This document shows positions 20,958-29,799 of a DNA stretch of 64,000 nt, piece after piece. The stretch lies in IMG/VR virus record IMGVR_UViG_3300032163_000007, positions 21,587-85,586 of that record, one strand, 5' to 3'. The notes under the pieces were generated by a model. That model had not been told where the DNA came from. It saw only the letters and a list, made by a program, of their open reading frames with translations, and made no database searches. The stretch is from a virus (lineage: Duplodnaviria; Heunggongvirae; Uroviricota; Caudoviricetes). The translations under genes were made by a program, and so were the position numbers. Position 1 is the first letter of the stretch, and the number at the start of each line of letters is the position of its first letter.

Positions 20958-20990
20958 CTTTTTTCTTAGTTTCTAGTATAATTAGTAATA
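20951..20990 (+). promoter_or_regulatory. variant of the AAAGTAAGTTTTT motif (AAAGTAACTTTTTT...TCTAGTATAAT) with a -10-like TAGTATAAT
   Basis: Matches the recurring intergenic motif; contains TATAAT. Confidence 0.35.
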
Positions 20991-21432
20991 GCTAGCACAG
21001 CTCGCTCATGAGACCCGCAGATTGGCCTTGTGAGAATTGGGTGTTAGTGTAAGATTCTGTGAGTGGTTACAACTCTGAAGTGACACTCAGCGCCTCCTGC
21101 GCAACTGGTTTACCAGTGGAGGCGCAAAAATATATCCATCTACCAAGTGTAGTTTGGGTCCAGGAGTCCTCGCAAGGGCCTCCTGCTACCTCGTGCTCGA
21201 TAGTAAGAGGAAATGCTTTTAGCAGTCGTTTGGCGTAATTAAACGGCTCACCAAATAAAAATAGGCTATAATAAATATAGCAGCTACCACGTAGCTAACA
21301 AAGCAAGAAGGAGTTAACCACATGAAAGACAGTTATCGATATTTAAAACTAGAGTCCTCATGTCTGGAAAAACTCCATTCATCGTTGATCTAAAACCCCC
21401 GTATCGAGTTCGTTTATTGTTATGTGTTTTAA

Positions 21433-21523
21433 GGAAGGCCAACCCGATAGTTGGCGACGGGAGCTGTCTTGAAAACAGCCGAGCCGAAAGGCCTTAGAGG
21501 ATCGTCCCCTCTGCCTTCCGCCA
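21433..21523 (+). tRNA. tRNA-Ser(TGA)-like, type II, divergent D-arm and T-loop (possibly pseudo or atypical)
   Basis: 7-bp acceptor GGAAGGC/GCCTTCC + G + CCA; anticodon arm GCTGT-CTTGAAA-ACAGC; long variable arm with GAAA tetraloop; T-stem AGAGG/CCTCT with loop ATCGTCC; layout parallels E. coli tRNA-Ser(UGA). Confidence 0.5.
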
Positions 21524-21558
21524 TTAAATAGAGTAGTGTTCGAATTCTTGGAAGGATG

Positions 21559-21571
21559 CCATAATTAAGAT
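21559..21571 (+). promoter_or_regulatory. HEG-associated -10-like element CCATAATTAAGAT directly abutting the ATG
   Basis: Shared TAATTAAG core immediately upstream of all six homing-endonuclease starts. Confidence 0.45.
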
Positions 21572-22150
21572 ATGGAAATAGAAAGATTTTGTGATGTATG
21601 TGGTAAAGGCTTAGTTGGGAAGCAGCGGCACTACTGCTCCACTAGGTGTAAGCGTCTAAGCCACAAGAGCCTAGGGGGTACTGCATACTGCGTAATATGT
21701 GGAGAAAGTTTTCTAACACATGGAAGGTTAAGTCAGAAAACCTGCTCTACTACGTGTGCTGGCCTGTACAGGTCGAGAGCTCTAGATATTGAGAAGGTTG
21801 ATCGGGAGTACCGTCAGCGTAGTAAAGACCATTACGCAAAGTACAAGCAGGCGTATATTGACAGAAATAATAAGCAGTACGCAGAAGGCAAGGCATTTAT
21901 TAATGAGGAAAAGGTTCGTAGGGGTGGATGCTGCGTCTGTGGAGAGCTGGAACCTGTAGTACTTGACTTACACCACCTTGACCCAAAGCAGAAAGAAAAT
22001 AACTTAGCCCAGATGATCAGATACAGAAAAGAGCGAATTTTAGATGAGATGGCAAAAGGAGTTATTATATGCTCCAATTGTCACAAGAAGCATCATGCAG
22101 GACTTTTAGAGATTCCTTCCGATGCTGATAGAGGGCAGGTAGTCTCGTAA
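21572..22150 (+). CDS. HNH homing endonuclease with N-terminal zinc-ribbon repeats
   Basis: Repeated CxxCG...F and CSTxC motifs; HNH core 'DLHHLDP...N...CSNCHKKHH'; lies inside the tRNA array. Confidence 0.7.
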   Translation: MEIERFCDVCGKGLVGKQRHYCSTRCKRLSHKSLGGTAYCVICGESFLTHGRLSQKTCSTTCAGLYRSRALDIEKVDREYRQRSKDHYAKYKQAYIDRNNKQYAEGKAFINEEKVRRGGCCVCGELEPVVLDLHHLDPKQKENNLAQMIRYRKERILDEMAKGVIICSNCHKKHHAGLLEIPSDADRGQVVS

Positions 22151-22218
22151 GGGGCGAGGGTTGGCTGTAAACCAATTGCGGAAACGCCTTTATGGTTCAA
22201 ATCCATAACTGCCCACCA
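22133..22218 (+). tRNA. tRNA-Tyr(GTA)-like, type II; its 5' end overlaps the last 18 nt of the HNH gene
   Basis: Acceptor GGGCAGG/ACTGCCC (6 bp) + A + CCA; anticodon arm GTTGG-CTGTAAA-CCAAT; variable arm with GCG-GAAA-CGC; canonical T-arm TATGG-TTCAAAT-CCATA; 3 nt rather than 2 between acceptor and D-stem. Confidence 0.5.
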
Positions 22219-22255
22219 TAAAAATCGTTGACCTGAGTAGGTCGTAAAACTGCTC
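22219..22255 (+). repeat. conserved ~37-nt element (copy 1) immediately after a tRNA CCA end: TAAAAATCGTTGACCTGAGTAGGTCGTAAAACTGCTC
   Basis: Near-identical copy at 23599-23635; contains hairpin GACCT-gagt-AGGTC. Confidence 0.6.
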
Positions 22256-22320
22256 CGCGGTGGATAATAACAGAAAGTTGGTGATGTATATGTTGTAAAA
22301 GATCTAAGGAGGTCAACAAC

Positions 22321-22545
22321 ATGTCGAGATCAGTAAAGAAAAGTGGTTGGTGCACGGACGGACGCGATGGGCGTAAGTGGTGGAAAAACCAAGCCAACAG
22401 AAAGTTACGAAACGCGGAGGAAGTACCAAACGGTAAAGCATATAAGAAGCTTTATGAGAGTTGGAACATTCACGACTACAGGTTTCAAGTAGACCTGCAT
22501 GCGTGGTGGTTTGCAGAGAAGCCCTGGAAATACTTGGGCAAGTAA
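22321..22545 (+). CDS. hypothetical basic protein
   Basis: Strong RBS AAGGAGG; 74 aa, Lys/Trp-rich. Confidence 0.5.
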   Translation: MSRSVKKSGWCTDGRDGRKWWKNQANRKLRNAEEVPNGKAYKKLYESWNIHDYRFQVDLHAWWFAEKPWKYLGK

Positions 22546-22556
22546 ATTGTAAATGT

Positions 22557-22642
22557 GCCGGGATGATGTAATTGGTAGCCTTGCTAGTTTTAGAAACTAG
22601 TGTCCTTCGGACGTAGGAGTTCAAGTCTCCTTCCCGGTACCA
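22557..22642 (+). tRNA. tRNA-Leu(TAG), type II
   Basis: Strong similarity to bacterial tRNA-Leu (D-loop AATTGGTAG, variable arm GTGTCCTTCGGACGT, T-arm GGAGTTCAAGTCTCC); CCA encoded. Confidence 0.85.
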
Positions 22643-22654
22643 AAATAAATAGTA

Positions 22655-22727
22655 GCTCTTGTAGCCCAACGGTAGAGGCACCGTTCTTAAACAGCGTCAA
22701 GTACTGGTTCGAATCCAGTCAGGAGCA
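22655..22727 (+). tRNA. tRNA with anticodon TAA (would read UUA, Leu) but class I shape with a short variable loop
   Basis: Acceptor GCTCTTG/CAGGAGC; T-arm ACTGG-TTCGAAT-CCAGT; anticodon loop CTTAAAC; A73. Confidence 0.55.
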
Positions 22728-22743
22728 TAATAAAGGTATTTTA

Positions 22744-22815
22744 GGGATTGTAGCTCAGTGGTAGAGCAGCCGACTCTTAATCGGAAGGTCGATGGTTCAA
22801 ACCCATCCTGTCCCA
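22744..22815 (+). tRNA. tRNA-Lys(CTT)
   Basis: D-arm GCTC-AGTGGTA-GAGC; anticodon loop CTCTTAA; T-arm GATGG-TTCAAAC-CCATC; one U-U mismatch in the acceptor stem. Confidence 0.7.
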
Positions 22816-22818
22816 AGA

Positions 22819-22893
22819 GGATTCATAGCTCAATAGAAGAGCAGCCGGCTTTTAACCGGAAGGTTTAGGGTGCAAGTCCCTATGGATCCACCA
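22819..22893 (+). tRNA. tRNA-Lys(TTT)
   Basis: Acceptor GGATTCA/TGGATCC; anticodon loop CTTTTAA; T-arm TAGGG-TGCAAGT-CCCTA; CCA encoded. Confidence 0.75.
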
Positions 22894-22954
22894 AGGCAGT
22901 ATTAGAAAGGAAAGTAATTATGTTGAAACGAGTTAGATCAATTTAAGAAATAAT

Positions 22955-23044
22955 AGAAGCGTGGTCGAGAGGCTTATGACAGCAGTTTGCTAAACTGCCG
23001 AGCACGAAAGTGCTCCGTTGGTTCGATTCCAACCGCTTCTGCCA
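22955..23044 (+). tRNA. tRNA-Ser(GCT), type II
   Basis: Perfect acceptor AGAAGCG/CGCTTCT; anticodon loop TTGCTAA; long variable arm; T-arm GTTGG-TTCGATT-CCAAC; CCA encoded. Confidence 0.8.
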
Positions 23045-23047
23045 ATT

Positions 23048-23122
23048 GGCGCTGTCGTCTAATGGTTAGGACACCTGGTTTTCAACCAGGGAATCAGGGT
23101 TCAATTCCCTGCAGCGCTACCA
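23048..23122 (+). tRNA. tRNA-Glu(TTC)
   Basis: Anticodon arm CCTGG-TTTTCAA-CCAGG; T-arm CAGGG-TTCAATT-CCCTG; CCA encoded. Confidence 0.75.
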
Positions 23123-23130
23123 ACAATCAA

Positions 23131-23208
23131 GCGATCGTGGCCGAGTGGTCCAAGGCGGTGAGCTGCAACCTCACTAATCCAGAAGTTCGAATCTTCTCGA
23201 TCGCTCCA
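23131..23208 (+). tRNA. tRNA-Cys(GCA)
   Basis: Perfect acceptor GCGATCG/CGATCGC; anticodon arm GTGAG-CTGCAAC-CTCAC; T-arm AGAAG-TTCGAAT-CTTCT; CCA encoded. Confidence 0.7.
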
Positions 23209-23265
23209 AATTAAGTACTAAAAGTTACGCCATATAGTCTATAATATAAATAAGGAGTTGAAGTA

Positions 23266-23367
23266 AATGTCAGTTGTAGCACGTATCCCCCAGATCCAAC
23301 ATCAACAACGCATTAGCCATGCTCCAGCTATTGTAGTGCCCGCAGCGTGGGACGATAGCATCAAATA
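23266..23367 (+). CDS. micro-ORF (33 aa) inside the tRNA array, with its own promoter-like TATAAT/TATAAATA, an RBS and a terminator
   Basis: 'TAGTCTATAATATAAATAAGGAGttgaagtaaATG'; followed by a rho-independent terminator. Confidence 0.35.
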
Positions 23368-23393
23368 AATACAGCCTCCATTTTTAGACAGTT

Positions 23394-23423
23394 CAAAAAA
23401 GGAGGCTTCGGCCTCCTTTTTTT
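23394..23423 (+). terminator. rho-independent terminator (bidirectional type)
   Basis: AAAAAAGGAGGC-ttcg-GCCTCCTTTTTTT. Confidence 0.8.
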
Positions 23424-23445
23424 ATTGTCTGTGGAGTTTGTTAGA

Positions 23446-23519
23446 CCGTGTGTAGCTCAGTTTGGTAGAGTACTGGTTTTGGGAACCAGATGCCGAAGGT
23501 TCGAACCCTTCTACACGGA
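23446..23519 (+). tRNA. tRNA-Pro(TGG)
   Basis: Acceptor CCGTGTG/TACACGG; anticodon arm CTGGT-TTTGGGA-ACCAG; T-arm GAAGG-TTCGAAC-CCTTC. Confidence 0.75.
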
Positions 23520-23523
23520 AAAT

Positions 23524-23598
23524 CTGGGATAGGTGTTTTTAGAGGCATAGCCGCTTTGGAAGCGGGCGGGGTTGGGGCGGTTCCAACATTCCAGACCA
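23524..23598 (+). tRNA. degenerate tRNA-Pro(TGG)-like tandem copy (pseudo or atypical tRNA)
   Basis: 7-bp acceptor CTGGGAT/ATTCCAG + A + CCA; anticodon loop TTTGGAA on a 4-bp stem; T-stem GTTGG/CCAAC with non-canonical loop GGCGGTT; D-loop lacks GG. Confidence 0.35.
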
Positions 23599-23635
23599 TA
23601 AAAATTGCGGACCTGAGTAGGTCGTAAAACTGCTC
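23599..23635 (+). repeat. conserved ~37-nt post-CCA element (copy 2): TAAAAATTGCGGACCTGAGTAGGTCGTAAAACTGCTC
   Basis: Near-identical to 22219-22255; again directly follows a degenerate tRNA's CCA. Confidence 0.6.
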
Positions 23636-23648
23636 AGTACTTGAAACT

Positions 23649-23723
23649 AGGCTTATAGTGAAATGGTTATCACACTTCCCTTTGACGGAAGTATTATTGG
23701 TTCGAATCCAGTTAGGCCTGCCA
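23649..23723 (+). tRNA. tRNA-Gln(TTG)
   Basis: Acceptor AGGCTTA/TAGGCCT; D-arm GTGA-AATGGTTA-TCAC; anticodon arm CTTCC-CTTTGAC-GGAAG; T-arm ATTGG-TTCGAAT-CCAGT; CCA encoded. Confidence 0.75.
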
Positions 23724-23758
23724 AAGTTATATCTTGTTGTGTTTAGATCTTACTCTGC

Positions 23759-23771
23759 CTATAATTAAACT
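23759..23771 (+). promoter_or_regulatory. HEG-associated element CTATAATTAAACT abutting the ATG
   Basis: Shared TATAATTAA core. Confidence 0.45.
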
Positions 23772-24419
23772 ATGGAAAAGAAAAAAGAAGATCGATTTTG
23801 CAGCATATGTGGTAGACGCTTAGCTTGGAATCAAGTCAGCTGTTGCTCTAACACGTGTAGACTTGCACTCAAAGAGTCTAAGAAGACTATAAAGTTTTGC
23901 AAGCAGTGTGGAAAGCAGCTGGGACCTAAAGACTATCAGAAGCAGTTCTGTAATGGATCTTGTGCTGCTACGTACAATAACTTAGCAAAGGGTAGAGACA
24001 GAATGGTAGAGGCGGTATGTCCTATATGTGGTAAGAAGTTTACTACTCTACCACATAAGCGTAGAGTTAGTTGTAGCTCTGAGTGCGCCCTTGTGCTTAG
24101 GAGCCACAGAGTAGCGAGCCTTATAAAGAGTGGAGAGTTCACATACCAAGGAGGTGGTAGTGTCCCCCAAAGTGTTAGGCGATATATTATGCAGAAGTAT
24201 GGGAGTAAGTGTACTAAGTGCGGTTGGCATGAGGTCAATCCTAAAACAGGAAAGACACCGCTACATGTAGACCACATAGATGGTAACTCCCAGAATTATA
24301 AAGAGGAGAATCTAGATCTGCTATGCCCTAATTGCCACAGCCTGACCCCTACCTATGGTAGTCTTAATAAGGGTAACGGCAGGGATAGTATAAAGAAGCG
24401 GATTAAGGGTTTAGTATAG
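23772..24419 (+). CDS. HNH homing endonuclease with zinc-ribbon repeats
   Basis: Five CxxCG/CSxxC repeats; HNH core 'LHVDHIDGNSQNYKEENLDLLCPNCH'. Confidence 0.7.
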   Translation: MEKKKEDRFCSICGRRLAWNQVSCCSNTCRLALKESKKTIKFCKQCGKQLGPKDYQKQFCNGSCAATYNNLAKGRDRMVEAVCPICGKKFTTLPHKRRVSCSSECALVLRSHRVASLIKSGEFTYQGGGSVPQSVRRYIMQKYGSKCTKCGWHEVNPKTGKTPLHVDHIDGNSQNYKEENLDLLCPNCHSLTPTYGSLNKGNGRDSIKKRIKGLV

Positions 24420-24484
24420 CAGTAGTACGCCGATCTCCAAAATCGGAGGTAGGAGGGCAGCACTTCTAATCCTTGCCATATAAC

Positions 24485-24560
24485 GGGGCTGTAGCGCAAC
24501 TGGTAGCGCATTTGTCTTGCACACAAAAGGTCATCGGTTCGATCCCGATCAGCTCCACCA
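24485..24560 (+). tRNA. tRNA-Ala(TGC)
   Basis: D-arm GCGC-AACTGGTA-GCGC; anticodon arm TTTGT-CTTGCAC-ACAAA; T-arm ATCGG-TTCGATC-CCGAT; CCA encoded. Confidence 0.8.
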
Positions 24561-24563
24561 AGC

Positions 24564-24638
24564 GGTTTGTTGGTGTAATGGTTAGCACGGTTGATTGTCA
24601 ATCAACAAGCAGGAGTTCAATTCTCCTACTTACCGCCA
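24564..24638 (+). tRNA. tRNA-Asp(GTC), acceptor stem with two U-U mismatches
   Basis: D-arm GTGT-AATGGTTA-GCAC; anticodon arm GTTGA-TTGTCAA-TCAAC; T-arm AGGAG-TTCAATT-CTCCT; 3' end ...ACCGCCA. Confidence 0.6.
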
Positions 24639-24641
24639 TTT

Positions 24642-24716
24642 AGGATATTAGCTCAGCAGTAGAGCAATCGGCTGATAACCGATAGGTCCGTAGGGCAGCA
24701 CTACGATATCCTACCA
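24642..24716 (+). tRNA. tRNA-Ile(GAT) with atypical D-loop (no GG) and T-loop (GGCAGCA, no TTC)
   Basis: Perfect acceptor AGGATAT/ATATCCT + A + CCA; anticodon arm ATCGG-CTGATAA-CCGAT; T-stem CGTAG/CTACG. Confidence 0.55.
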
Positions 24717-24832
24717 TAAAGATTTGAGGGATAGAATGAGCCTGCGGTGGTTGAGACCCCACACTACGAAGAGGTAGTAAAAATAGCAGGCCCCCTTCAC
24801 TCCGCCCGGGTACGCGGTAAAACTGCCCATGA

Positions 24833-24905
24833 GGATCCTTAGCTCAGATGGTAGAGCGCCCTCCTTACAAGTGGGATGTCGTAGGTTCGAGTCCTACAGG
24901 ATCCA
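24833..24905 (+). tRNA. tRNA-Val(TAC)
   Basis: Perfect acceptor GGATCCT/AGGATCC; D-arm GCTC-AGATGGTA-GAGC; anticodon loop CTTACAA; T-arm GTAGG-TTCGAGT-CCTAC. Confidence 0.75.
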
Positions 24906-24908
24906 AAT

Positions 24909-24985
24909 GGGTAATTAGCTCAATGGATTAGAGCGCATGCCTACGAAGCATAAGGTTGAAGGTTCGAGTCCTTCATTGCCCTCCA
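24909..24985 (+). tRNA. tRNA-Arg(ACG)
   Basis: Acceptor GGGTAAT/ATTGCCC; anticodon loop CTACGAA; T-arm GAAGG-TTCGAGT-CCTTC; CCA encoded. Confidence 0.7.
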
Positions 24986-24988
24986 AGT

Positions 24989-25062
24989 GGTGATAGTAGT
25001 GTAATGGAAGCACACTTCTCTGTGAAAGAAGTAGACAGGGGTCAGTACCCGCTATCACACCA
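24989..25062 (+). tRNA. tRNA-His(GTG) with G-1 and a non-canonical shortened T-arm
   Basis: G-1 + acceptor GTGATAG/CTATCAC; anticodon arm CTTCT-CTGTGAA-AGAAG; T region GGGT-cagt-ACCC; CCA encoded. Confidence 0.5.
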
Positions 25063-27569: not shown

Positions 27570-28658
27570 ATGTGGATGATGTACTTAATAGCTTTGATCC
27601 CGATAGTCGTAGGAATGTTCCTATGGGCATTTTCTAAGAGAATAACACTCACTGAGTACCTACTCTCTTGTTTAACAGGCATTGTTGTTACAGTACTAAT
27701 CACCCTCCTCATGGCACTCGGCATGACTGGGGACATCGAGACCTGGTCAGGCCTAGTTACCAAAGCCACACATATTCCTACCTGGGTTAACACCTATGAG
27801 CAGGCTCACTATGTCACAGTAGGTAAGACTACAACCGTATACTACACCACTGAGTACAACACTAACCCAGAGCACTGGGTTGCTGAGGCTACCCTTGGAA
27901 GTAGGGGCGCTGAAATTGGTATCAGTGAGGCCAGGTATAATGATATCTTAAAGAAGTTTGGCAGAGAAGTAGTAGTTAATGGGAGTAGGCCTAGTTATCA
28001 TTCTGGAGATAGGAATGACTACGTTGCTGTTAACGATAGCAAATACGTCTATCCAATCACACAGGAGTATAGTTTTACAAATAAGGTAAAGGCTTGTCCT
28101 AGTGTGTTTTCATACACGAAGGTATCTCCTGGAATTAAGGTGTTCGAATACCCCAAGAACGAGGACCTCTTTAAGTCAGATAGACTCATGGGAGAAGCCA
28201 AGAAAGACTTCAACATCTACGAGTTTGACAAGTTAAACACGGCAGTAGGTATGAAGATCTGGGCAAACATCATAATTGTAGGTTTTAAGGGGCAGGACTC
28301 TAAGATTGCCCAACTACAAGAGGCAAAGTGGGTCGGTGGAAAGAAGAATGACCTAGTCATTTGCTATTCCAAAGAACCCAAATGGGCTTATGTGTTTGGA
28401 TGGACTGAGAATGAACAGGTAAAGCGAAATCTCGAAGAGCTGTTTACTATCGGAACGATCAGTGGTAATATGTTACCTCAGATCCAAGAAGTAGTTATGA
28501 AGGATTATAAGATTAAAGACTGGTCTAAGTTTGATTACTTGACTGTAGAACCTCCGGGCTGGGCATTTGCTCTCTTGATCGCTTTGATGCTGCTAACGCA
28601 GTTTGGGTACTACTGGTGGGCATTTACGAATGGAGAAGATAAAGATGAAAGTATTTAA
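27570..28658 (+). CDS. membrane protein (DUF2207-like partner of LemA): N-terminal TMs, large central domain, C-terminal TM
   Basis: Hydrophobic N- and C-termini; adjacent to the LemA gene, as is often seen in bacteria. Confidence 0.4.
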   Translation: MWMMYLIALIPIVVGMFLWAFSKRITLTEYLLSCLTGIVVTVLITLLMALGMTGDIETWSGLVTKATHIPTWVNTYEQAHYVTVGKTTTVYYTTEYNTNPEHWVAEATLGSRGAEIGISEARYNDILKKFGREVVVNGSRPSYHSGDRNDYVAVNDSKYVYPITQEYSFTNKVKACPSVFSYTKVSPGIKVFEYPKNEDLFKSDRLMGEAKKDFNIYEFDKLNTAVGMKIWANIIIVGFKGQDSKIAQLQEAKWVGGKKNDLVICYSKEPKWAYVFGWTENEQVKRNLEELFTIGTISGNMLPQIQEVVMKDYKIKDWSKFDYLTVEPPGWAFALLIALMLLTQFGYYWWAFTNGEDKDESI

Positions 28659-29799
28659 GAAGGACAATTTAATAATCAAAAGCTGGTGTGAGAATCCCGA
28701 GCAAGGTGCGCTGGACCAAGCATTCAATACAGCATCGGCTCCCTATATATTTAGACAAGTATGCCTAATGCCCGATACCCATCAAGGTTATGGCGTTCCC
28801 ATTGGGGGCGTAGTTGCGACTAAAGGAGTTATTCTTCCTGAAGCCGTAGGAGTTGACATTGGATGTGGGATGATCGCCGTAGAAACGAGTATTGACGTAC
28901 CCAGTGTTGATCAAATTAAGGCTGTGATGGGAAAGATTCGTGCAGTTATTCCTGTTGGAATGAATCACAGAGCAGATAAGTGCCCCATCTCTGCCATGCC
29001 TAGCATAGGAGACATCATCAGCAATGGTATCGTGGAACGAGAGTTTGAGTCAGCTAGAAAGCAACTTGGAACTCTTGGAAGCGGAAACCACTTCTTAGAA
29101 CTACAAAAGGATGCTAAAGGCAAGCTTTGGGTCATGATCCACAGCGGAAGCAGAAACATTGGATACAAGGTTGCAGAGCACTACATCGATGAAGCCAAGC
29201 TTCTGAATAAAATGTGGTACACAAACACTCCTGAAGAGATTTGTATGCTACCCGCTGACTCAGAACTAGGAATAGCCTATGCTGCTGAAATGCAATACTG
29301 CGTTGACTTCGCTCTGGCGAATCGAAAGATGATGCTTGATGACGTTATGGCTATTATCAGCCACGATCTAGGAGCTAGCTTCAAAGAGCCTATAAACATA
29401 GCGCATAACTATGCAGCTATTGAGCACCACTACGGAGAGAACGTAATAGTTCATCGCAAGGGTGCTACTAGAGCTAGACTCGGTGAATTAGGAATTATTC
29501 CTGGGAGTCAAGGAACAAAGTCGTATATTGTTGAGGGTCTCGGCAATCCTGAGAGCTTTCAAAGCTGCAGTCATGGTGCTGGGCGTACAATGGGCCGTAA
29601 AGAGGCTACACGAGTTTTAGATCTAGTTGCTGAGATTAAGATACTGGATGACCAAGGAATTGTTCACGGTATTAGAACTGCCAAGGACCTTGAAGAGGCT
29701 ACAAGTGCCTACAAGGACATCGATATAGTCATGGAAGAACAAAAGGATCTTGTTAAGATTGTTACTGAGTTGCTCCCTGTAGCAGTAATAAAGGGGTAA
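28645..29799 (+). CDS. rtcB: RtcB RNA 3'-phosphate/5'-OH ligase
   Basis: RtcB motifs PDTHQGYGVPIGG, GCGM, GSGNHF, HSGSRN, NYAAIEHH, HRKGAT, IPGSQG, SHGAGR. Confidence 0.85.
   Translation: MKVFKKDNLIIKSWCENPEQGALDQAFNTASAPYIFRQVCLMPDTHQGYGVPIGGVVATKGVILPEAVGVDIGCGMIAVETSIDVPSVDQIKAVMGKIRAVIPVGMNHRADKCPISAMPSIGDIISNGIVEREFESARKQLGTLGSGNHFLELQKDAKGKLWVMIHSGSRNIGYKVAEHYIDEAKLLNKMWYTNTPEEICMLPADSELGIAYAAEMQYCVDFALANRKMMLDDVMAIISHDLGASFKEPINIAHNYAAIEHHYGENVIVHRKGATRARLGELGIIPGSQGTKSYIVEGLGNPESFQSCSHGAGRTMGRKEATRVLDLVAEIKILDDQGIVHGIRTAKDLEEATSAYKDIDIVMEEQKDLVKIVTELLPVAVIKG

Follow-up and report, generated by a model that had tools for sequence, protein, structure and literature searches.

Endonuclease genes of the HNH type are the most widespread protein genes inside tRNA arrays, where they have been linked to horizontal spread and to tRNA-repertoire diversity (PMC5966550, PMC6582537). 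The closest described systems are found in phages T4 and T5. The T4 record lists tRNA-Ile, 41 nt of spacer, the endonuclease gene segB, a further 5 nt, and tRNA-Arg. Homing of SegB carries the neighbouring tRNA genes along; processing of the tRNA has been proposed to cut the endonuclease mRNA at its stop codon, likewise for the T5 endonucleases, and a hairpin-held start region has been proposed to act as an expression brake (PMC2330249). In T5, the reading frames run into the tRNAs themselves, with overlaps of 23 nt for hegD/tRNA-Gln2, 14 nt for hegC/tRNA-Ser2 and 24 nt for T5.069/tRNA-Asn. The stop codon of hegD lies in the D-loop of tRNA-Gln2 (GGTTAAGG), a tRNA that is marked as a pseudogene. 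Here, we describe two HNH genes, HE1 and HE2, in the tRNA array of a tailed phage, and use a survey of HE1 relatives to ask what their overlap with downstream tRNAs signifies.

The tRNA array and its two HNH genes

The window, i.e., the whole 64-kb stretch of DNA analysed, contains 23 tRNA genes that serve 19 amino acids, Phe being absent (ARAGORN, Rfam and folds). The array holding HE1 and HE2 comprises 19 tRNA genes and lies near a gene for an RtcB RNA ligase; this complement suggests that the phage invests in the working of its tRNAs. The surroundings of HE1 are as follows.

21433..21523, + strand: tRNA-Ser(UGA), type II, encoded CCA (ARAGORN at default settings; minimum-free-energy fold is a cloverleaf)
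21524..21571, + strand: HE1 upstream spacer, 48 nt (aligned with the HE2 upstream spacer; folds)
21572..22150, + strand: HE1, free-standing HNH endonuclease gene, 192 aa (ORF list, PHROGs, invariant residues, relatives in phage tRNA arrays)
22133..22150, + strand: dual-use stretch of 18 nt, in which the HE1 codons for GQVVS plus TAA are tRNA-Tyr positions 1-18
22133..22218, + strand: tRNA-Tyr(GUA), type II, A73-CCA, canonical T-loop (Rfam RF00005; ARAGORN in a shifted register)
22219..22256, + strand: trailer element copy 1, directly 3' of the tRNA-Tyr CCA, with TAAAAAT, hairpin GACC..GGTC and GTAAAACTGCTC (repeat families D3 and D4)

An earlier note, made from the sequence alone, had placed an HNH gene between tRNA-Ser(UGA) and tRNA-Tyr(GUA), and the open reading frame, PHROG matches and ARAGORN calls bear this out. 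HE1 matches the HNH families phrog_2255 (E 9.5e-22) and phrog_3106 (E 9.5e-19); its match to Pfam HNH_2 (E 0.024) is below the cut-off. N-terminal CxxC zinc-ribbon repeats are followed by a C-terminal HNH domain with the motifs CxxC...LDLHHLD...CSNCHKKHH, which are invariant among relatives. Residues C120, C123, H134, H135, C167, N169, C170, H171 and H175 are identical in HE1 and three homologues, and most of the invariant catalytic or zinc residues are common to HE2. An AlphaFold model from a four-sequence alignment was poor overall (mean pLDDT 61.7), with residues 80-180 reaching 70-86; it assigns residues 129-131 and 164-166 to strands and 168-175 to a helix. A Foldseek search of this poor model against the PDB gave no significant match, nor did a sequence search of the PDB with HE1 give any match. 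Profile searches with HE1 and HE2 returned HNH and zinc-ribbon families and sub-threshold PLATZ, DUF and YacG hits, and no GIY-YIG family; NCBIfam added nothing informative. The gene sits between other genes, in an inter-tRNA spacer, which defines it as free-standing, and Rfam detected no group I or II intron at the locus. Judged by its sequence, HE1 appears to be a member of an HNH homing-endonuclease family specialised for phage tRNA arrays, with predicted nuclease activity.

No Shine-Dalgarno sequence precedes HE1, and its AUG lies within a 5-bp hairpin (CCAUA/UAUGG). The 48-nt spacers upstream of HE1 and HE2 share GCCWATAATTAA..ATGGAAA. A sigma-70 promoter scan upstream of HE1 found no consensus site and no excess over shuffles; TATAAT-like boxes just 5' of both ATGs are apparent by eye only. 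The G+C content of HE1 (0.437) and HE2 (0.436) equals that of the rest of the phage (0.431), so nothing points to a recent arrival.

In the tRNA-Ser gene, all 7 bp of the acceptor stem are perfectly paired, the variable arm is long and the 3' end reads G73-CCA; deviations occur at C8 and in the T-loop. The type II architecture, CCA and non-canonical T-loop that had been read from the sequence are thus all present, by the ARAGORN call and a T-loop of AUCGUCC (A54/U58). Its best match within the Rfam tRNA clan, from a 106-nt search, is sub-threshold (tRNA-Sec model, 27.8 bits against a gathering score of 47, E 4e-4). The gene has the shape of a tRNA, but its score does not establish Rfam membership. 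A selenocysteine tRNA was ruled out, as the anticodon is UGA, not UCA.

For tRNA-Tyr, a 101-nt search with laxer filters gave 30.8 bits in RF00005 (gathering score 29) over 22133-22215, and we aligned the gene, which starts GGGCAGG, with 22 other phage tRNA-Tyr genes. We prefer this register because it gives G1-C72 and A73 and fits the other phage tRNA-Tyr. The ARAGORN register of 22137-22218, with A1.C72, a 1-nt connector and a 7-bp anticodon stem, was dropped. A shifted D-stem with a 4-nt connector proved unneeded, as the standard type II arrangement, with a D-stem of 3 bp and a loop of 11 nt, accommodates the sequence at the cost of a single mismatch. Two stem mismatches in the gene are real, G7.A66 and G10.G25. 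With the start at 22133 and the HE1 stop TAA at 22148-22150, the two genes overlap by 18 nt, the stop falling in the D-loop (positions 16-18) and the tRNA 5' end coinciding with an HE1 codon boundary. The proposed overlap of the tRNA-Tyr 5' end with the HE1 stop, in the GGGCAGG register, is upheld by this match. Tested with tRNA predictors, the two flanking genes fared differently: ARAGORN accepts both, whereas Rfam accepts tRNA-Tyr (30.8 bits) and scores tRNA-Ser below threshold (27.8 bits). Rfam speed filters lose tRNA-Tyr in larger searches and ARAGORN misses three real tRNAs here; since tRNA finders and gene callers disagree in this region, such overlaps are easily mis-annotated.

The remainder of the array contains the second endonuclease gene and further tRNAs with unusual loops.

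23524..23598, + strand: second tRNA-Pro(UGG)-like gene, T-loop GGCGGUU (ARAGORN only at 95% thresholds; no Rfam match)
23599-23637, + strand: trailer element copy 2, after the second tRNA-Pro (repeat D3)
23649..23723, + strand: tRNA-Gln(UUG), canonical, upstream neighbour of HE2 (ARAGORN; Rfam 63.6 bits)
23772..24419, + strand: HE2, the other HNH endonuclease gene of the array, 215 aa, from a separate HNH subfamily (Pfam PF01844; phrog_1271)
24405..24478, + strand: tRNA-Trp(CCA), D-loop AGCAGUA, T-loop GGCAGCA (Rfam 41.4 bits with alignment; uncalled by ARAGORN)
24642..24716, + strand: tRNA-Ile(GAU), D-loop AGCAGUA and T-loop GGCAGCA, both equal to those of tRNA-Trp (Rfam 51.5 bits; cloverleaf fold)
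24717-24829, + strand: trailer element copy 3, diverged, after tRNA-Ile (repeats D4 and D9)
24990..25062, + strand: tRNA-His(GUG), aberrant short T-loop, last gene of the array (Rfam 41.3 bits; fold)

HE2 matches PF01844 with 25.9 bits, above the cut-off of 21.4, and phrog_1271 with E 1.1e-27. It had been described as lying between tRNA-Gln and tRNA-Ala; the two are not its direct neighbours, for tRNA-Trp (body 24405-24475, CCA to 24478) intervenes and overlaps the HE2 stop by 15 nt, its first 15 nt being the last codons of HE2 plus the TAG stop (24417-24419). The spacer between tRNA-Gln and HE2 is again 48 nt. The likeness to the T4 segB layout that the earlier note had drawn is sound, with a 48-nt spacer and overlaps of 18 and 15 nt here in place of the 41 and 5 nt of T4. 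In the minimum-free-energy fold (z -2.76), HE2 coding sequence at 24378-24386 forms a 9-bp alternative pairing with the tRNA-Trp 3' end, which may be due to chance. The trailer motif occurs five times against 0.65 expected. No endonuclease gene adjoins tRNA-Ile or tRNA-His.

Overlap with the downstream tRNA as a family-wide trait

We collected HE1 relatives from viral and metagenomic contigs and clustered them at 80% identity into a non-redundant set of 119. Before clustering, tRNAs lay within 3 kb at 123 of 163 loci with a relative, and for 64 relatives the stop codon fell inside a downstream tRNA. The overlap of HE1 with tRNA-Tyr goes beyond chance: in the non-redundant set, 44 of 119 relatives stop inside a same-strand downstream tRNA. 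Another 13 of the 119 end 0-15 nt 5' of a tRNA, and overlapping and near-overlapping cases together involve 20 anticodon types. The tRNA overlap is therefore a trait of the family. It is not an obligatory one, since 46 of 119 relatives have no downstream tRNA within 300 nt. Seen from the tRNA side, 101 ORFs of 80 aa or more terminate within a tRNA's first 45 nt, and the HE1 family accounts for 68 of these. As a control, only 3 of 23 loci with HE2-like genes fall in tRNA arrays; in two of these three the gene abuts a downstream tRNA, once at a distance of 2 nt and once with a 23-nt overlap. A literature search of incomplete coverage found no paper on stop-in-tRNA overlap for the HE1 family. To our knowledge, the effect has not previously been quantified: in one HNH family, about 48% of members have their 3' end within a tRNA or no more than 15 nt away from one.

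Two comparisons were made between related arrays with and without the gene. Relative to L046, array L066 has acquired a leader, an endonuclease gene and tRNA-Ala precisely at the 3' boundary of tRNA-Arg, with the original trailer now located behind tRNA-Ala. Array L136 is identical to L066 until 45 nt beyond tRNA-Gly, where an endonuclease gene is inserted directly 5' of tRNA-Asn; this tRNA-Asn is a diverged allele with compensatory stem changes. HE1-family members are thus both present and absent at the same site in these two comparisons, and the endonuclease gene and its downstream tRNA were gained or replaced together. For the phage studied here, the collections searched held no relative lacking the endonuclease gene. 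A blastn search of 50,697 phage records gave tRNA-sized matches only, scans of IMG/VR with RuvC and HE1 found no relatives of the phage, and exact-pattern scans for the tRNA-Tyr in viral contigs and for the trailer repeat in genome contigs gave no match. The closest portal relatives, at 50-55% identity, are on short contigs, and in the nearest one with context (50% portal identity) RuvC is not followed by a tRNA array.

We consider it probable that these loci are mobile endonuclease-tRNA cassettes in which maturation of the tRNA 5' end would strip the endonuclease mRNA of its stop codon and so limit expression. HE1 and HE2 each occupy an inter-tRNA spacer, with about 50 nt from the upstream CCA to the start codon; there being no spacer before the next tRNA, the ORF enters the tRNA and ends on a stop triplet that the tRNA supplies, either U8-A9-G10 or a TAA or TAG in the D-loop. 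The endonuclease would cut gene-less arrays near a tRNA gene boundary, and repair would copy the cassette of 5' leader, endonuclease gene and fused tRNA; as the whole cassette is copied, the tRNA would travel as cargo. RNase P would cut the shared transcript at tRNA +1 (22132/22133 for HE1, 24404/24405 for HE2), stripping the last codons and the stop from the endonuclease mRNA. Because this cleavage removes the stop, only unprocessed precursors would yield full-length endonuclease. Together with the hairpin-held AUG and the missing Shine-Dalgarno sequence, the RNase P step would keep a potentially self-toxic nuclease at low levels.

The overlap distribution itself bears on the regulatory part of this proposal. 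It has peaks at 10 and 15 nt, which coincide with stop triplets in tRNAs: among tRNA-frame combinations, 14.5% have a stop triplet at positions 8-10 and 7.6% at positions 13-15, and 32% have none. As tRNAs supply stop triplets in most frames, the overlap could result from passive compaction, in which endonuclease genes, mobile or relic, would overlap tRNAs without any regulatory role. Packed arrays would lose 3' untranslated sequence, and losing a stop codon would do no harm, another being available in the tRNA within 10-30 nt. Other types of ORF also run into tRNAs, and the residues that the tRNA contributes to the protein's C terminus lack conservation, both of which fit compaction. We nevertheless regard this account as possible rather than likely. 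Short overlaps are over-represented relative to random frames, with a median of 12.5 against 21 and a 10-nt overlap in 25% of cases against 14.5% expected from a random reading frame (p 0.054), and the 32% of combinations that lack a stop also speak against it. In addition, three endonuclease groups with no relationship to one another share the layout, namely GIY-YIG SegB, the HNH genes of T5 and the HE1 family, and the physical linkage to a tRNA is kept when the element moves, as in L066/L046 and L136/L066. Compaction departs from the cassette explanation in the regulatory step only.

A different role for the endonucleases is suggested by SegB, which amplifies a segment with tRNA-Tyr and segB and thereby overcomes Septu (PMC13096335). 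HE1, which is fused to a tRNA-Tyr, and HE2 might be domesticated, non-homing enzymes that amplify or reshuffle tRNA genes against tRNA-targeting host defences. Their fully ameliorated composition, the repeated trailer elements in the array and the nearby RtcB gene would fit such a role; within the window, however, the segment with HE1 and tRNA-Tyr is neither amplified nor duplicated, and we consider domestication unlikely. It is compatible with homing rather than opposed to it.

Structure of the deviant tRNAs

Three of the four endonuclease-flanking tRNAs of this array are deviant, compared with 3 of 15 that do not flank one (one-sided hypergeometric p ~0.07). The earlier note had offered target-site divergence after endonuclease invasion as a possible cause of the degeneracy: the flanking tRNAs would contain the endonuclease target and would have diverged once the gene had arrived, so that the phage's own DNA escapes cutting. 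There is precedent for a target of this kind in SegB, whose recognition sequence is the T-arm motif GGTTCRANTCC and whose cleavage falls at the 3' ends of tRNAs (PMC2330249). Neither tRNA-Ser, upstream of HE1, nor tRNA-Trp, fused to HE2, has the SegB T-arm motif; in tRNA-Tyr, the 5' residue of each mismatched pair (G7.A66 and G10.G25) lies within the stretch shared with HE1; and on an unrelated contig (L149) a tRNA-Glu with the T-loop GGCAGCA is fused to an HE1-family member.

Family-wide counts show no such excess. Counted with a cloverleaf finder that is blind to loop sequence, T-loops other than TTCRA occur in 8 of 48 downstream-fused tRNAs, 4 of 49 upstream-flanking tRNAs and 73 of 493 other tRNAs, which is not a significant difference. 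Among ARAGORN-called tRNAs, deviant T-loops are found in 7 of 72 and 6 of 61 flanking genes versus 58 of 709 others. Acceptor-stem mismatches are not in excess either (2 of 48 fused tRNAs versus 64 of 542 others); throughout the family, fused tRNAs keep intact stems. Flanking tRNAs are thus no more deviant than others, and the claim that invasion made them degenerate is not sustained. Within the array, deviant features also occur in tRNA-Ile, tRNA-His and the second tRNA-Pro, none of which adjoins an endonuclease gene, and tRNA-Gln beside HE2 is canonical. Moreover, the other 13 of the 19 array tRNAs keep standard T-loops, which would leave the phage open to cutting were the T-arm the target.

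The deviant loops also show a pattern of their own. Across tRNAs, A54 is associated with U58 (p 6e-22), and D-loops without GG co-occur with a non-U residue at position 55 (p 1e-21). The A54:U58 swap of tRNA-Ser is a compensated class with 16 other occurrences, and odd loops in general recur as classes, with compensating changes, in many unrelated phages. Compensation and recurrence in unrelated phages indicate selection for structure rather than decay; they also weigh against target-site divergence, which we judge quite improbable, although it may apply to tRNA-Tyr alone, given where its mismatches lie. A literature search that was not aimed at these classes found no paper on compensated tRNA loop classes.

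The elements flanking HE1 could alternatively be pseudogenes or tRNA-like stable RNAs comparable to T5 RNA1-3 and T5 tRNA-Gln2, the T5 annotation listing tRNA-like stable RNAs and, at the hegD 3' end, a pseudo-tRNA (tRNA-Gln2). Their scores are low, at 30.8 bits for tRNA-Tyr and sub-threshold for tRNA-Ser when most others score 44-71 bits in Rfam, and tRNA-Tyr has its two mismatches. Both, however, form a full cloverleaf with a 7-nt anticodon loop, U33 and an encoded CCA, and the odd T-loop of tRNA-Ser belongs to the compensated class. G73 of tRNA-Ser, A73 and G1-C72 of tRNA-Tyr, and the variable arms of both fit the bacterial Ser and Tyr identity rules. In addition, they are the only Tyr-specific tRNA and the only UCA-reading Ser tRNA in the window, and TAT and TAC together make up 38 per 1000 codons. 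Pseudogenes or stable RNAs are therefore an improbable reading; going by these sequence features, the two genes flanking HE1 are most likely working tRNAs.

Meaning and comparison with known systems

The locus itself carries very little wider weight, adding one more free-standing endonuclease gene to those known from phage tRNA arrays. Of wider use is the finding that an endonuclease gene and its tRNA are gained or replaced together, which offers a concrete mechanism for change in phage tRNA repertoires, and the compensated non-standard tRNA loops merit separate study. As a tentative generalisation, which may well prove too broad, HE1-type HNH genes and their 3'-fused tRNAs could be widespread co-mobile cassettes that both assemble and reshuffle phage tRNA arrays, with the tRNA as cargo paying for the persistence of the endonuclease and RNase P as a stop-removing switch. 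Linked to this, some 10-15% of phage-array tRNAs, tRNA-Ser, tRNA-Trp and tRNA-Ile included, might rely on alternative, compensated contacts between D-loop and T-loop (either A54:U58 or G55 together with an A18-type D-loop). If so, these contacts might alter recognition by host enzymes or defence nucleases.

Excision of tRNAs as a means of setting mRNA ends is familiar from mitochondrial tRNA punctuation, in which tRNAs abut or overlap the message and stop codons are completed by polyadenylation. Stop repair of this kind is not expected in bacteria, where stop-less transcripts are normally rescued and their products degraded. In the tRNA array units of mycobacteria and mycobacteriophages, HNH genes have been reported as co-located only.

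Among phages, T4 segB resembles HE1 in being a free-standing endonuclease gene between two tRNA genes. SegB, however, has a GIY-YIG fold and not an HNH fold, HE1 and HE2 not being GIY-YIG members, and the segB stop abuts its tRNA from outside whereas that of HE1 lies inside. The target and activity of SegB are established, while HE1 is a predicted endonuclease. T5 hegC and hegD, which encode F-Tfl HNH endonucleases, are closer in design, since their reading frames likewise extend into the start of the following tRNA, yet HE1 has no detectable similarity to the T5 genes (BLASTP E 1.7 versus hegD and 3.0 versus T5.069), and the hegC/hegD record cites IPR002711 and IPR010902 where HE1 has N-terminal CxxC zinc-ribbon repeats instead. 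The HE1 family is represented in cultured phages by proteins of Pseudomonas phage KIL4 (YP_009616724) and Erwinia phage pEp_SNUABM_01 (YP_009851626), with 41-42% identity (tblastn) over the HNH half. In RefSeq, each of these HNH genes overlaps its tRNA by 10 nt, tRNA-Gly in KIL4 and tRNA-Lys in pEp_SNUABM_01; both tRNAs are canonical, with the TAG at tRNA positions 8-10, whereas the HE1 stop is at positions 16-18 of a weaker tRNA. The layout of HE1 is in this sense ordinary: it is already annotated in T5, closely paralleled in T4 and common in other phages.

Two endonuclease genes within the tRNA array

HE1 and HE2, two free-standing HNH endonuclease genes, are the only protein genes interrupting the tRNA array of the window, which belongs to a 171,862-bp metagenomic phage contig that also includes portal, RuvC, NrdD, RtcB and sigma-factor genes. 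ARAGORN at default settings called 15 of the 19 array tRNAs and missed four, three of which (24405-24475, 24642-24713 and 24990-25059) were added by the Rfam tRNA model. By these two tools, the window's tRNAs cover 19 amino acids, and no tRNA-Phe was seen in the window.

21433-25062, + strand: tRNA array, 19 genes (ARAGORN and Rfam tRNA model)
21433-21523, + strand: tRNA-Ser(UGA), 5' neighbour of HE1 (ARAGORN)
21572-22150, + strand: HE1, 192 aa, HNH endonuclease (phrog_2255, E 9.5e-22)
22133-22215, + strand: tRNA-Tyr, 3' of HE1 (Rfam tRNA model, 30.8 bits against a gathering score of 29)
23524-23598, + strand: second tRNA-Pro(UGG) (ARAGORN at 95% thresholds)
23772-24419, + strand: HE2, 215 aa, HNH endonuclease (phrog_1271, E 1.1e-27; Pfam PF01844 above cut-off)
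24405-24475, + strand: tRNA-Trp(CCA), 3' of HE2 (Rfam, 41.4 bits, alignment)

The catalytic and zinc-binding residues C120, C123, H134, H135, C167, N169, C170, H171 and H175 are invariant in HE1 and its homologues, and the G+C content of both genes equals that of the rest of the genome. An earlier note, made from sequence alone, had placed HE1 between tRNA-Ser and tRNA-Tyr with its stop codon inside the latter, and both tRNAs were recovered there: ARAGORN calls the two, and Rfam accepts tRNA-Tyr but leaves tRNA-Ser under threshold, with a best score of only 27.8 bits (tRNA-Sec model, E 4e-4), sub-threshold even in a small-window search. The type II architecture, CCA end and odd T-loop described for tRNA-Ser are all present. 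Its acceptor stem is a perfect 7 bp, its 3' end reads G73-CCA and its minimum-free-energy fold is the cloverleaf; it departs from the standard at C8 and in the T-loop AUCGUCC.

For tRNA-Tyr, the Rfam alignment agrees with the proposed register starting at GGGCAGG, followed by UA, the D-arm, anticodon loop CUGUAAA, a long variable arm, T-loop UUCAAAU, ACUGCCC and A73. Searches of longer sequence lose this match to Rfam's speed filters, and ARAGORN uses a shifted register from 22137. Aligned with 22 other phage tRNA-Tyr, it has the usual 3-bp D-stem and 11-nt D-loop; two pairs, G7.A66 and G10.G25, are non-standard, both with their 5' partners within the overlap. Because the HE1 frame ends ...AGA|GGG CAG GTA GTC TCG TAA, the tRNA begins in phase with the codons and its positions 16-18 are the stop, giving an overlap of 18 nt. 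HE2 had been assigned to the interval between tRNA-Gln and tRNA-Ala; tRNA-Gln is indeed upstream, but the assignment missed tRNA-Trp directly downstream, whose first codon-aligned triplet is AAG and whose positions 13-15 are the HE2 stop TAG. For HE1 and HE2 alike, exactly 48 nt separate the preceding tRNA from the start codon.

Several further elements were observed in and around the array. HE2 coding positions 24378-24386 (GGCAGGGAU) can form 9 bp with the tRNA-Trp 3' end (24470-24478), taking in the discriminator and the first two CCA bases; in the minimum-free-energy fold (z -2.76) this pairing rivals the genuine acceptor stem, and it may be chance or an mRNA/tRNA fold switch. Just 5' of tRNA-Ser, where the array starts, lies a 22-codon ORF (21323-21391, +) with a strong ribosome-binding site, AAGGAG. 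The 261 nt between the RuvC-like gene and the array (20990-21250, +) adopt a closed multi-hairpin fold (minimum free energy -93.9 kcal/mol, z -3.39; 0/200 shuffles equally stable) that matched no Rfam family, and may represent a candidate small RNA heading the array. A trailer element (22219-22256, 23599-23637 and 24717-24829, +) directly follows the CCA of tRNA-Tyr, second tRNA-Pro and tRNA-Ile, three deviant tRNAs. It starts with TAAA(A/G)AT, forms a short hairpin and ends in GTAAAACTGC(T/C)C; the window contains 5 instances of its motif against an expectation of 0.65, and two copies resemble weak terminators on the minus strand. T4 and T5 have stable RNAs of unassigned function at similar places. 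tRNA-His combines A73 with G at position -1, which is unusual for bacteria. An RtcB RNA ligase gene (about 28645-29799, +; Pfam PF01139, source contig) lies a few kb 3' of the array, which fits a phage repairing or replacing tRNAs attacked by host nucleases.

Stop-codon overlap among HE1 relatives

Close HE1 homologues are few, and two of the three that are non-identical to HE1 show the overlap: P0002 shares 24 nt with a tRNA-Pro(GGG) and P0004 30 nt with a tRNA-Lys that starts at the GAG of the conserved C-terminal HAGLLE. A further 160 loci were fetched from viral and metagenomic contigs with the family alignment. tRNAs lie within 3 kb in 123 of the 163 loci, and at 64 of the 163 the family ORF has its stop codon within a downstream tRNA on the same strand. 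After clustering of the proteins at 80% identity, 44 of 119 clusters overlap a tRNA, 13 have a spacer of 0-15 nt, 16 one of 16-300 nt, and in the other 46 the 300 nt downstream contain no tRNA. Twenty anticodon types are represented among the fused tRNAs, and the start codon usually lies 20-120 nt beyond the previous tRNA. Among ORFs of at least 80 aa that end in the first 45 nt of a tRNA at the same loci, 68 of 101 belong to the family; the remainder are mostly spurious frames across tRNA arrays, with a few other endonuclease types. As a control, HE2 relatives lie in tRNA arrays at only 3 of 23 loci, two of these three adjoining a downstream tRNA (2-nt spacer; 23-nt overlap). A stop codon within the downstream tRNA is thus a trait of the HE1 family.

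Overlap lengths peak at 10, 15 and 21-24 nt, the places where tRNAs offer stop triplets (U8-A9-G10, positions 13-15 and the D-loop, respectively). A random reading frame would yield fewer short overlaps than are seen (observed median 12.5 versus 21 expected; 10-nt overlaps 25% versus 14.5%, p 0.054). At locus L009, an apparent 5' half of a canonical tRNA (1988-2050; D-arm TAGCTCAGCCTGGTAGAGC, then GCTTG..GGG) lies 5' of the HE1 homologue and may, judging from its sequence, be the relic of a resident tRNA after insertion; the tRNA-Pro(GGG) fused to the homologue's 3' end is full but odd.

Compensated loops in the deviant tRNAs

The earlier note had explained the odd flanking tRNAs by target-site divergence after endonuclease invasion. 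Six array tRNAs are deviant (Ser, Tyr, second Pro, Trp, Ile and His), comprising three of the four that flank endonuclease genes and three of the 15 others (p ~0.07), an excess that is suggestive only. Across the family loci, this explanation is not supported. Of the tRNAs called by ARAGORN, 6/61 upstream-flanking, 7/72 downstream-flanking and 58/709 others have a T-loop without TTCRA. Since ARAGORN misses some deviant tRNAs, such as the tRNA-Glu at L149 3282-3360, which has T-loop GGCAGCA and overlaps a family member by 10 nt, the comparison was repeated with a cloverleaf finder free of loop-sequence constraint (0 matches in 546 shuffled sequences), which gave 8/48, 4/49 and 73/493, again without significance. 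Acceptor mismatches are likewise not enriched in fused tRNAs (2/48 versus 64/542 others). Also against divergence, tRNA-Gln, 5' of HE2, is fully canonical, and the deviant loops are compensated.

This compensation emerged from 590 distinct tRNA cloverleaves (loci L009-L171). The standard TTCRA T-loop is missing from about 15% of the tRNAs in these phage arrays. A54 co-occurs with T58 in 16 cases (p 6e-22), and non-T at 55 accompanies D-loops without GG (odds ratio 40, p 1e-21). The recurrent T-loop classes, ATCGTxx (A54:U58 swap), TGCRAxx (G55), TTTGAxx (U56, with GA in the D-loop) and GGCRGYx, all have matching D-loop changes. tRNA-Ser belongs to the A54:U58 class. tRNA-Trp (24405-24478) and tRNA-Ile (24642-24716) combine D-loop AGCAGUA, lacking G18-G19, with T-loop GGCAGCA, which recurs in the tRNA-Glu of L149, an unrelated contig. 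The tRNA-Ile D-arm TAGCTCAGCAGTAGAGC is common to forty viral tRNA-like sequences; where these are well formed, the T-loop is nearly always TGCRAxx or GGCRGCA, with G55 replacing the standard U. Second tRNA-Pro and tRNA-His (24990-25062) also have non-standard D-loop/T-loop contacts. The pattern looks like tertiary-pair covariation outside the design of tRNA finders. From these sequence patterns, we read the deviant loops as structured variants, not decay; the two mismatches of tRNA-Tyr fall outside this explanation.

Mobility, expression and known systems

Comparisons among related arrays bear on how these genes move. Relative to locus L046, L066 has gained a leader, an endonuclease gene, 36 nt and a tRNA-Ala exactly 3' of tRNA-Arg(UCU), and the trailer that follows tRNA-Arg in L046 follows tRNA-Ala in L066. 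L136 is identical to L066 through tRNA-Gly and 45 nt more, and then carries an endonuclease gene directly 5' of tRNA-Asn, with an 11-nt overlap; this tRNA-Asn allele has diverged, and the changes in its anticodon and T stems are compensatory. These differences therefore indicate that endonuclease gene and downstream tRNA were gained or replaced as one unit. The comparisons cover family members other than HE1, since the collections searched yielded no close relative of its phage.

No Shine-Dalgarno sequence precedes HE1 or HE2, and no consensus promoter was detected upstream. Their start regions share the motif GCCWATAATTAA..ATGGAAA, with the AUG held in a 5-bp hairpin. From what is known of RNase P and of the rescue of mRNAs lacking a stop codon, we infer that, if both genes are co-transcribed with the array, RNase P cuts at 22132/22133 and 24404/24405 would leave endonuclease mRNAs without a stop codon, so that full-length protein would come only from unprocessed precursors. 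Alternatively, the overlap may reflect passive compaction, in which the spacer was lost and translation simply ends at the next stop, which happens to lie in the tRNA. The two accounts part only at the expression step, and we favour stop-codon removal by RNase P.

The wider points concern the frequency of fusion in an HNH family, gene and tRNA acting as one cassette, and compensated non-standard tRNA loops. A literature search found no paper describing or counting the overlap in the HE1 family. RefSeq records of the same family show it: in Pseudomonas phage KIL4 (HNH 1102-1500, tRNA-Gly from 1491) and Erwinia phage pEp_SNUABM_01 (HNH 1036-1458, tRNA-Lys from 1449), the overlap is 10 nt. In mycobacterial tRNA arrays, HNH is the commonest protein gene (PMC5966550, PMC6582537).

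The likeness to T4 segB drawn in the earlier note is apt: segB, encoding a GIY-YIG homing endonuclease, lies 41 nt after tRNA-Ile and 5 nt before tRNA-Arg, and gain of gene and tRNA as a unit matches SegB co-conversion. Processing of the tRNA-Arg precursor has been proposed to cut segB mRNA between last codon and stop, lowering expression, and the same paper notes that this had also been proposed for the T5 enzymes (PMC2330249). In T5, the overlaps measure 23 nt for hegD and tRNA-Gln2, where the hegD stop falls in the D-loop, 14 nt for hegC and tRNA-Ser2, and 24 nt for T5.069 and tRNA-Asn; the T5 proteins have no detectable similarity to HE1. The T5 record (NC_005859) flags tRNA-Gln2(CUG) (29344-29419), overlapped by the hegD 3' end, as a pseudogene. 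T5 tRNA-Gln2 sets a precedent for fusion of an endonuclease gene to a weakened tRNA. The HE1 element is of a known type, that of free-standing homing endonuclease genes that lie in phage tRNA arrays and are fused at the 3' end to the tRNA that follows.
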